Origin: Candidatus Thorarchaeota archaeon
GTDB taxonomy: Archaea; Asgardarchaeota; Thorarchaeia; Thorarchaeales; Thorarchaeaceae
DNA length: 64,000 bases
Assembly: GCA_046758445.1 (NCBI GenBank)
Contig: JBHIAE010000003.1
Coordinates: 1-64,000 of the forward strand
Direction of reading: 5' to 3'
This document shows positions 25,226 to 27,716 of the stretch, piece after piece. Made by a program: the position numbers and the translations under genes. Each line of letters opens with the position of its first letter. The stretch's first letter is position 1. The notes beneath the pieces were generated by a model. It was not told the origin of the DNA. It saw only the letters and a program-made list of their open reading frames with translations, and searched no databases.

Positions 25226-25993
25226 GTGAACCTTGCAGGCCCCGTCTACAGACTATACGAATATGTCTTACACAGGCAGCTGCACAAAGACAAGGCTCCT
25301 CGCCACGTTGGAATAATCCTTGACGGGAATCGCCGCTATGCGAGGCAGCACGGCCTTGAAGTTCCCTGGTTTGGACACCAAAAGGGTGCACAGAAGGTAA
25401 TGGAAGTGCTAAGGATCCTGTGGGAGGCTGGAGTGAAGGTCTGTACACTCTACGCATTCTCCGTTGAGAACTTCCAGAGAAACCCTGACGAAGTAAATGA
25501 GATCATGGCCATTGCAAGGGAGAAGTTCAGCGAGGTCGTTGGGAACCCTGACGTCCACAAACACAAGGTCCGCATAAAGGCAATTGGCCGAGTCGATCTT
25601 CTTCCAGAGGATGTTCAACAGGCCATCGGCCAGGCTGAGGCCGAAACTGAGAACTACAGCGAGCATATTCTGAATGTGGCCATAGGATACTCTGGAAGAG
25701 CAGAACTTGTAGATGCGGTACAGGCAATCGGTGAGAAGATTCGAGAAGGCACGCTTGACCCATCAATGATCGATGAGGAAATAATCGAGCGTCACCTGTA
25801 CACGAATGGTGTGCCTGACCCTGACTTGATAATTAGGACATCCGGCGAGGAACGCCTCTCCGGCTTCCTTCTCTGGCAGTCAGCATATTCTGAGCTCTAC
25901 TTTGCACAGATATACTGGCCTGCAGTAAGAAGGATTGATATCTGGCGGGCACTACGGTCCTATGCTCGGCGATCACGTCGATTTGGCGAGTGA
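25226..25993 (+). CDS. uppS: cis-prenyltransferase (polyprenyl diphosphate synthase)
   Basis: HVGIILDGNRRYA, YAFSVENF.R, YSGR.E, DLIIRTSGEERLSGFLLWQ. Confidence 0.96.
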   Translation: MNLAGPVYRLYEYVLHRQLHKDKAPRHVGIILDGNRRYARQHGLEVPWFGHQKGAQKVMEVLRILWEAGVKVCTLYAFSVENFQRNPDEVNEIMAIAREKFSEVVGNPDVHKHKVRIKAIGRVDLLPEDVQQAIGQAEAETENYSEHILNVAIGYSGRAELVDAVQAIGEKIREGTLDPSMIDEEIIERHLYTNGVPDPDLIIRTSGEERLSGFLLWQSAYSELYFAQIYWPAVRRIDIWRALRSYARRSRRFGE

Positions 25994-26002
25994 CACAGTC
26001 TT

Positions 26003-26143
26003 TTATCTGACCTGCACCCCGGACTGGGAGTAGACGATCTTGCACAGGATACTTCTGTGTTCCATCTTTCCCCTGATTGGTGTCACCACCGTCTTACAGA
26101 ACTGTTCTTCTGTGAGGGCATCAGAATCTTTGTTTGACATCAT
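26003..26143 (-). CDS. Candidate 46-aa small protein
   Basis: MMSNKDSDALTEEQFCKTVVTPIRGKMEHRSILCKIVYSQSGVQVR, preceded by AGGAG; below the ORF-track cutoff. Confidence 0.4.
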   Translation of the reverse strand: MMSNKDSDALTEEQFCKTVVTPIRGKMEHRSILCKIVYSQSGVQVR

Positions 26144-26164
26144 CGAGATGAAATCTCTCCTACA

Positions 26165-26428
26165 GACCTGACTTCCTTCTCCTGTCTTGGTGCCGGTGCA
26201 TCACTCCCGGCGACAGAGAGTCTTTCCACAGTTCTTGCCACGGCGGGGTCATAATCACCCGCTCCCATTTCATCACCGAAGACGAGAACGTCCATTCGGA
26301 CACGGTGAACAGCCGCGGACTCCTGAAGACTTGATGCGAGGTTCCCCGTGAGGAGTGAGAAAGTCCCTTGGGAGTATCTCCCTCCGGTTTTCGGCAGTGA
26401 GCAATCGCCACATGATGAAACGAGAGCG
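26165..26428 (-). ncRNA. Candidate large structured RNA or leader
   Basis: 16-bp stem 26413-26428 with 26260-26275 whose two mismatches are G-U pairs only on the minus strand, multiple inner hairpins, TATA-like element at about 26447-26453. Confidence 0.55.
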
Positions 26429-26519
26429 CACTTACCTAGTTCTCTCATATATTAGAGTGGTCTTGTCACCCTTTATATTCCCGTTACTCGTTCTTGAGTC
26501 TGTTCAGGAGATCATAGCA

Positions 26520-27716
26520 TTGGCCAGGAAGCCAATTGATGTCTATCGTGGTCTTATTCGCACACGCGTTAACGAAGAGATTGCCCTGCATATCGATACA
26601 GTCGTTGAAAGATACTCTGACCACATGTTTGCTGACATGAAGCTGTCTCATCATCTAAAGAGATTCGTTGGAATATGGGCAAGGCTGGTAGCCTATCTGA
26701 ACCAAAGAGAAACCGTGGATGTTCCTGATCTCACAGCTGCGATTGATCTACTGGACTACTTCACATCGACCTCGAAATGGTGGACATTGTCAAGGGATGA
26801 TCCCGGCATAGTCCTTAGACCCCCTTCCCGAGACCCGAGAGAGTTCATCAAATCCTTACCACTGGTCAGCTTTTCTAGTAAGGCCTTGGGAAGAGCATCC
26901 AGTGCAGCAGAGAAACTCTCACATTTCCTTGAGGAGCATAAGATTGGAGGGGCAGACACACGAGCAGATCTACGCGAACATTTCATCTCGACTTGGCATC
27001 TCATTGGAGCATCTGTGTGCAAGAGTCAGGGACGCAACACGACTGAGGAGGGTGACTTTGAAACTGCCTATGACTTGGTTCGAGTGCTGCTGTTCTACAC
27101 GCCTGCGGATGACTTCATGGCGCTGACGGCTGTACGCCAGGTTGCCACGAATCCAATCCTGTCAAGACTTGCTGAGATTGATTTTGGACCAGGGTTCGAT
27201 AGAAAACTCGATTCTTCATTGGCTGCCAGGTTGGAGAGATCCCATGGCGAGTATCTCACAAAGATTGCAAGGTTGACGACCGCCGAGTCTAGAAGCATCC
27301 TAACGAACTCTCTTCGAGTGTTGGCCCAGCTACAAGCGCTCAAATTGGGAATAAGTCGAATCAAGATAGAAGACTACGAACCTGTGACTATGGGGGCGAT
27401 GGAGCTCTTGGATAGAATAGATGTTCCCTCCGCCCTACTTCACGAACAATCCAAGGTAACAGAGCTCTTCAAGAGTCTTCAACCAGAAGAAGGCGTTGAA
27501 GAGAAGATGGCCCTATTGAAGAGGAGAGTTGAAGGACTACTAGTCGATTCCACTGGCAATAGGGACTTTCTGCTTCAGTTCACTAAGCTCGTGCCGAGAA
27601 TCACTGCCCTGCTGCTACTACTTGCGGGCGGCACCAAGGCCAAACCTGGAGAGAAGCTAAAGGATTGTGATGTCAAGAGAGGCCTTATTCTGCTAAACAG
27701 ACTCCTCAATGAGTAG
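26520..27716 (+). CDS. Hypothetical helical protein with four repeats resembling a histone-fold or AAA+ lid C-terminus
   Basis: Start revised to TTG 26520 (TTTATA at 26472, CAGGAG SD); repeated R/K..V...D...A..L motif. Confidence 0.7.
   Translation: MARKPIDVYRGLIRTRVNEEIALHIDTVVERYSDHMFADMKLSHHLKRFVGIWARLVAYLNQRETVDVPDLTAAIDLLDYFTSTSKWWTLSRDDPGIVLRPPSRDPREFIKSLPLVSFSSKALGRASSAAEKLSHFLEEHKIGGADTRADLREHFISTWHLIGASVCKSQGRNTTEEGDFETAYDLVRVLLFYTPADDFMALTAVRQVATNPILSRLAEIDFGPGFDRKLDSSLAARLERSHGEYLTKIARLTTAESRSILTNSLRVLAQLQALKLGISRIKIEDYEPVTMGAMELLDRIDVPSALLHEQSKVTELFKSLQPEEGVEEKMALLKRRVEGLLVDSTGNRDFLLQFTKLVPRITALLLLLAGGTKAKPGEKLKDCDVKRGLILLNRLLNE

Follow-up and report, generated by a model that had tools for sequence, protein, structure and literature searches.

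Within the window, meaning the whole 64,000-nt stretch of the Candidatus Thorarchaeota contig that was analyzed, the structured minus-strand region downstream of uppS is very probably the 3' module of a TnpB element of Asgard archaea (Thorarchaeota), in a copy that lacks TnpB and is most likely an immobile, decaying remnant. A sequence-only reading of the same DNA had proposed a novel class of RNA. This proposal did not survive comparison with other genomes, since full-length tnpB genes in this genome and in 17 related ones carry the module at their 3' end. The 3' limit of the feature, which had been set at 26165, was likewise moved, as the element extends further, to about 26007. The parts of the locus are as follows (positions in the window).

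26007..26470, minus strand: whole TnpB-less ('solo') element remnant of 464 nt, composed of a relic of the tnpB 3' end and the right end
26055..26443, minus strand: region homologous to the predicted omegaRNA scaffold (family helices 1-18; RNAalifold consensus of 55 copies)
26140..26448, minus strand: 102-aa ORF, a leftover of the frame for the C-terminal tail of TnpB (tblastn with the TnpB of contig C37)
26413..26428, minus strand: 5' arm of a copy-specific 16-bp helix, which replaces a variable hairpin inside family helix 2
26260..26275, minus strand: 3' arm of the 16-bp helix, corresponding in the family to a loop and the 3' strand of helix 10
26007..26054, minus strand: terminal segment with the last hairpin, a degenerate GTTCACTCA motif and the right-end terminus (family alignment, 3' 60-85 nt)
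25987..26006, minus strand: predicted guide position, in host DNA directly 3' of the right end and antisense to the stop codon of uppS
26472..26479, no strand assigned: TATA box of the host (TTTATATT as read on the plus strand), 24-31 nt ahead of where the module starts
25226..25993, plus strand: uppS, convergent with the element (Pfam Prenyltransf, E = 2e-77)

Copies of the module and the tnpB genes that carry it

The minus strand of 26100-26520 was used as a blastn query against 40 relatives. By this approach, seven copies of the repeat were detected in its own genome and up to 14 copies per genome overall, with the repeat present in 17 of the 24 genomes of the same family and absent from all 16 genomes of other families that were searched. 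Five of the copies in its own genome were found to form the 3' end of an ORF of about 558 aa (contigs C37, C102, C15, C4 and C70), and one further copy, besides that of the window, was TnpB-less. The ~558-aa ORF matched Cas12f1-like_TNB (46 bits, cut-off of 26), OrfB_IS605 and NCBIfam guided_TnpB (E = 7e-27), as well as solved structures (PDB TnpB 9nzp; TnpB and Cas12f), and its own genome thus encodes five full-length 558-aa TnpB paralogs with the module. In these paralogs and in about 29 relatives, the module was found to share the strand of tnpB, to overlap the gene's 3' end and to reach the right end.

The module is composed of the last ~100 codons of tnpB and about 130-135 nt of right end, and it occupies about 26007-26470 on the minus strand of the window. 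DNA alignment revealed homology of the window copy to 54 family copies from ~26470 down to the terminus CAGGTCAG at 26014-26007, and its identity to the paralogs of its own genome was 73-78%. When the TnpB encoded on C37 was used as a tblastn query, only its residues 480-558 were matched in the window. The 102-aa ORF left in this part starts with an ATG, at a position where full-length genes have GTG (Val). Approximately 25-26 of the 55 aligned copies were found without an upstream tnpB, all with a common start point.

A more distant TnpB subfamily (C2, C24, C85 and C90; ~45% protein identity) has in common with these copies a conserved 3' block, GGTGGTGACA...GGAACACAGAAGT, and short matches to window positions 26048-26111 were seen at C24:505-545 and C8:9461-9523 of its own genome (G000). 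In the TnpB of C37 (L023:2261-3937), residues at about 350-360 read AIGRLKN, with a glycine where RuvC-II usually has glutamate, and RuvC-III at about residues 430-440 reads NADRN. This pattern resembles the derived TnpB clades with a rearranged RuvC-II and NADxN (PMC10691335), in a part of the protein where the alignment to solved TnpB is weak.

The RNA of the module has the signature expected of a TnpB omegaRNA (reRNA) scaffold. This layout was recognized from a structured region that has the strand of tnpB, covers the last part of the ORF and reaches the right end, and from sister copies that diverge immediately past the terminus. The identity of the omegaRNA rests on position, strand and covariation, and not on a family match, because Rfam holds no matching model: a search of Rfam 15 gave no match at gathering thresholds, and the matches listed at E <= 10 were at chance level. 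The strong Rfam match that had been named in advance as a refutation of novelty was not what overturned it. The absence of SRP and RNase P signatures from the region was confirmed, with the SRP RNA located on C20 and the RNase P RNA on C1, and no tRNAs were detected in the window.

Insertion site and element ends

The syntenic site was compared in three relatives (G006, G007 and G008), in which only 54-73 nt separate uppS from the next gene. These are empty sites. Relative to them, the window contains 477 extra bases (25995-26471), and its flanks are 89-92% identical to those of G007. The window copy is an insertion that is missing at the same site in all three relatives.

At the right end, copies share the terminus consensus GAAA-Y-R-GGT-Y-A-K, which in the window has the form CAGGTCAG and ends at 26007; sister copies in G017, G018, G021 and its own genome were found to diverge immediately past this point. 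At the left junction (about 26470/26471), host DNA abuts the module directly, without the GTAYGAGTTCAAAA-type upstream motif that is retained about 36 nt before the RNA start in the solo copies of G006, G012, C40 and G018b. A candidate left-end motif, ACGAGT at 26482-26490, was rejected as a weak match within host DNA common to G007. Comparison of 22 upstream regions yielded neither a TAM nor the true left boundary of full elements.

Several observations were made on sequences adjoining the ends. Directly after the right end, a GCTAGGCCGAGCTACACTACAGGGGC-type repeat is present in several copies (C40, L041/G006, L051/G012 and the flanks of L043, L046 and L078), and it also lies upstream of some solo copies; it may represent a preferred target or another small repeat. 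Full-length copies have a conserved leader about 60-130 nt before the tnpB ATG that contains GAGTGAAC, which is complementary to GTTCACTC of the right end, and AACTTTATATA occurs twice in this leader.

Comparison with the spacers of relatives identified ACAGTCTTTTAT, beside the uppS stop codon, as the promoter-proximal end of the ancestral host spacer. About 36-55 nt of the ancestral spacer downstream of uppS are gone from the window (25991-26006 compared to the G007 and G008 spacers). This loss looks like a microhomology deletion, as the break is flanked by GTGAC on both sides, with one of the two repeats overlapping the stop codon of uppS. The 20-mer at 25987-26006, which would serve as the guide, is host DNA common to the empty sites and has no match in the genome outside its own locus.

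The TATA-like element pointed out in the sequence-only reading is real (26472-26479) but is not part of the element: it is host DNA of the neighboring plus-strand gene of 453 aa, and it is kept upstream of that gene in the empty sites of all three relatives. An A/T-rich box also precedes other solo copies, at about -26 to -31, and the window's box may be used for the minus strand as well. The ORF of the 453-aa gene (26355-27716) is overcalled at its 5' end, where the initial ~40 codons lie over the element; relatives are homologous only from 26472-26492 onward, a nearby ATG in G008 is out of frame, and the true start is possibly a TTG at about 26520.

Conservation of the RNA fold and decay of the tail frame

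An alignment of 55 family copies (A1) was folded by RNAalifold. The consensus contains 90 pairs in 18 helices and spans 26443-26055 in the window. Compensatory double changes were detected at 70 of the 90 pairs. Standard pairs were formed in 93.8% of the alignment cells at paired positions, compared to 40-47% (about 43%) in slid controls, and 483 cells were changed on both sides, compared to 81-106 in the same controls; none of 500 shuffles reached the observed values on any measure. Paired columns were about half as variable as unpaired columns, in the full-length and the solo sets alike. The structure continues about 85 nt beyond the tnpB stop codon (26140), with the end of the element about 130 nt beyond it, and the scaffold is ~390-430 nt in length. 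For the last 60 nt RNAalifold returned no consensus because of indels, and the terminal hairpin was seen only by eye.

The stems quoted in the sequence-only reading were all found on the minus strand where that reading had placed them, and comparison across the family separated them into two groups. The GGGAG/CUCCC, GUCC/GGAC and UCUCUGUC/GACAGGAGA stems correspond to family helices 4, 9 and 12, respectively, and each covaries, and the GCCGG/CCGGC stem shows covariation at all five of its pairs. By contrast, the two central pairs of the GGACUUU/GGAGUCC stem form in only 2-3 of the 55 copies, and the GGGU/ACCC stem, although 84% paired, hardly covaries and is in competition with helix 8, which has better support; the alternative GCGGG/CCCGC pairing overlaps the GGGU/ACCC columns.

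The 16-bp closing helix, which had been the most striking part of that reading, exists in the window (26428-26413 with 26275-26260) and even extends to 17 bp, but it is not conserved. Across the 55 copies, its positions were paired at 38.7%, the same as in shuffled and slid controls, so its G-U pairs, which had been read as a mark of selection at the RNA level, belong to a helix specific to one copy and do not carry that argument. The helix crosses family helices 1 and 2 and takes up the 3' strand of helix 10. A helix of 16 bp arose in none of 150 dinucleotide-shuffled versions of the region, and the helix of the window is therefore not a chance feature of composition. The notion that its 5' arm is a duplicate of the 5' strand of helix 10 was discarded, as the match of 9 of 11 positions is at about chance level. 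The overall stability of the region was not unusual compared to shuffles (MFE z = -0.15 for the minus strand and -0.80 for the plus strand). A different long-range helix outside of the family consensus, a perfect 15-16 bp in length, was observed in four copies of one solo subfamily (L054, L055, L057 and L060 of G017/G021) at module alignment positions of about 174 and 377. This helix may be a tertiary or alternative pairing specific to that subfamily.

Whether RNA or protein is conserved was examined from the state of the tail frame, which was open in all 29 full-length copies and interrupted by stops or frameshifts in 12 of the 26 solo copies. Since these 12 solo copies with broken frames keep 81-87 of the 90 consensus pairs, it is the RNA that is conserved and not the peptide. 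Pairwise differences at codon positions 1, 2 and 3 were 0.276, 0.270 and 0.327 in full-length genes, a weak periodicity, and 0.308, 0.313 and 0.318 in solo copies, with no periodicity. Taken together, the decay of the solo frames, the codon periodicity and the lower variation of paired columns argue that the selected product of the module is RNA. The earlier proposals that conservation acts on a minus-strand RNA, and that the locus is a protein-less RNA-gene unit, were upheld.

The 102-aa ORF could instead be a genuine gene for a small protein that descends from the TnpB tail (26140-26448, minus strand). Its frame is open and starts with ATG, some 25 nt downstream of a TATA box, as in leaderless archaeal mRNAs, and an ATG is found at the same position in 13 solo copies, 8 of which keep the frame open. 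However, open frames are about equally frequent in solo copies that have no start codon at all, so the openness of a solo frame is uninformative; together with the interrupted frames and the missing third-position excess of the solo copies, and the lack of a Pfam match to the ORF, this makes a small-protein gene highly improbable. The open 102-aa ORF of the window is a relic.

The 46-aa ORF at 26003-26160 lies within covarying helices 14-18 and is not a conserved frame, because family indels in this region are 4, 7, 9 and 11 nt in length. This observation bears on a further proposal of the sequence-only reading, that of a novel riboswitch-like leader, here taken as a cis-regulatory RNA that would control the downstream 46-aa ORF or uppS. 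Such a role would be in keeping with a highly structured sequence located just upstream of a small ORF and convergent with uppS. It is nonetheless hardly credible, as the module recurs in dozens of settings unrelated to one another and at the ends of tnpB genes, the site is empty in three relatives with an intact uppS, the frame of the 46-aa ORF is not kept, and no riboswitch of Rfam was matched. No conserved link to a regulated downstream gene was found among the copies.

State of the window copy and relation to known systems

The preferred reading, that of a TnpB-less remnant, can be placed in the following scheme. In intact elements, the DNA of the module encodes a weakly constrained C-terminal tail of TnpB of ~100 aa and, on the same strand, a predicted structured RNA of ~390-430 nt that continues past the stop codon to the right end. 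TnpB would bind this scaffold, and the ~16-20 nt that follow in the transcript, copied from the flank just past the right end, would act as a guide for finding and cutting matching DNA beside a TAM. The window copy has kept the scaffold and an intact right-end terminus and has lost tnpB and the conserved upstream module, most simply through a deletion event that would have taken most of the host spacer with it. It cannot make a nuclease of its own and probably cannot move, and it has gained a 16-17-bp inverted repeat that outcompetes the family fold.

Folding of the individual copies was consistent with such decay. The window copy forms 78 of the 90 consensus pairs (12 broken), the fifth lowest number among the 55 copies, and part of this deficit is probably an alignment artefact, as a perfect ACAGAA/UUCUGU hairpin is present where helix 17 would be, which suggests that helix 17 is misaligned in this copy. 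Its MFE was -132 kcal/mol, compared to -89 kcal/mol when constrained to the consensus. This gap of 43 kcal/mol, by a measure that depends on the gapped alignment, was the third worst of the 55 copies, and intact copies of its own genome had gaps of 3-13 kcal/mol. Lacking tnpB and the upstream module, and folding mainly through an inverted repeat of its own, the window copy is best regarded as an immobile, decaying relic. Some expression of this copy is plausible given that its 102-aa frame is open with an ATG and the TATA box is at the distance expected for a leaderless transcript.

In an alternative reading, the window copy would be a working stand-alone guide-RNA gene, driven by the host TATA box and loaded in trans by one of the five full-length TnpB paralogs. 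Its guide, derived from the flank, would be antisense to the uppS stop codon and spacer, and the RNA would either mark the empty allele for cleavage, as in homing-type maintenance, or act as an antisense or regulatory RNA. TnpB-less copies are abundant, have a common start and keep their fold while their ORFs decay, and as a class these solo modules suggest maintenance or recent amplification. Several solo subfamilies share non-TnpB sequence upstream, as mobile mini-elements would. The A/T-rich box of the solo copies is represented in the window by a perfect AATATAAA at -31, and the omegaRNAs that PATEs often encode are ones that must be used in trans (Meers 2023, PMC10055086). The window copy, however, is among the worst folders into the family structure, has three mismatches in its GTTCACTCA motif (the form GTCTACTCC at 26035-26027) and is devoid of the upstream module. 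Its TATA box is the promoter of the neighboring gene, from which firing on the minus strand is putative, and its guide has no match beyond its own locus. Cross-loading by a paralogous TnpB is uncertain, since the window copy is only 73-78% identical to the paralogs of its own genome. A working trans-acting guide-RNA gene at this locus is, on balance, unlikely. The broader proposal, that TnpB-less scaffold copies are dispersed stand-alone guide-RNA genes used in trans by TnpB paralogs, is in our estimate quite improbable; if it were true, the host TATA box would drive an RNA with a guide antisense to the 3' end of uppS, and the locus would be a domesticated RNA-guided regulator or a locus-marking device in an Asgard archaeon.

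The remnant assigned here can be compared to three known systems. TnpB omegaRNAs are established, and the usual scaffold is ~130-150 nt in length and overlaps a few tnpB codons. The omegaRNA or reRNA of IS200/IS605-IS1341-type elements, for example ISDra2, was reportedly described in 2021 by Karvelis and by Altae-Tran. Similarly to these omegaRNAs, the Thorarchaeota module lies on the same strand as tnpB, includes the 3' end of the ORF, reaches the right end and forms a structured, conserved scaffold, with a flank after the end (the guide position) that differs from copy to copy. By contrast, the Thorarchaeota scaffold is about three times longer (~390-430 nt versus ~130-150 nt) and overlaps a tail of ~100 aa instead of a few codons. 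The system also differs in that the window copy carries no tnpB and that no Y1 TnpA match (PF01797) was obtained by Pfam in its own genome, which is 92.7% complete.

Asgard TnpB groups linked to aCas1 (Cas1H-Asgard-1/-2) have a conserved GTTCACTCA downstream of tnpB (Altae-Tran 2023, PMC10691335), and the motif is present in nearly all copies of the family described here. An Asgard host, a GTTCACTCA downstream of tnpB that is preceded by a variable stretch and an NADxN RuvC-III are features common to both. Four loci of its own genome (C37, C102, C2 and C85) pair tnpB divergently with a gene for a giant protein, as listed below.

C37:17467-23037 (L126:68-5638) of G000, minus strand: giant ORF of 1857 aa, divergently upstream of tnpB
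C102:2087-4462, C2:131025-134495 and C85:1621-6351 of G000: other giant-ORF loci

This giant protein may be the 'aCas1' partner of the literature. It gave no Pfam match, no match to PDB sequences and no detectable homology to Cas1, and Cas1 (PF01867) gave no Pfam match in the same 92.7%-complete genome. The family likely belongs to the aCas1-linked Asgard TnpB group, an assignment that falls short of proof given the missing Cas1 signal in the giant protein and the missing Y1 TnpA in the genome. Unlike in the Cas1H-Asgard groups, the stretch before GTTCACTCA is constant within subfamilies, and variation is seen in the flank past the terminus; the window copy, moreover, carries neither tnpB nor the giant gene.

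The third system comprises PATEs and effector-less omegaRNA mini-elements (Dyall-Smith 2011, PMC3119063; Meers 2023, PMC10055086). Like PATEs, the TnpB-less copies are derivatives of TnpB elements without the protein, generated by deletion of the core, and the window copy has no transposase or nuclease gene, with the 102-aa tail relic alone remaining. Unlike PATEs, which have both ends, it has a terminus at the right end only.

For this locus the result is deflationary: what looked like a new class of RNA is left over from a transposon, and the helix that stood out most is peculiar to this one decaying copy. The protein-less TnpB guide-RNA element is of a known kind, and the window copy is partly decayed. 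The family to which it belongs is an Asgard TnpB guide scaffold that is very large (~400 nt), covaries well and has no Rfam model, and its alignment is ready for a covariance model. Nearly half of the family copies have no nuclease gene yet have kept the RNA fold, and the family is a natural test of the use of effector-less guide RNAs in trans.
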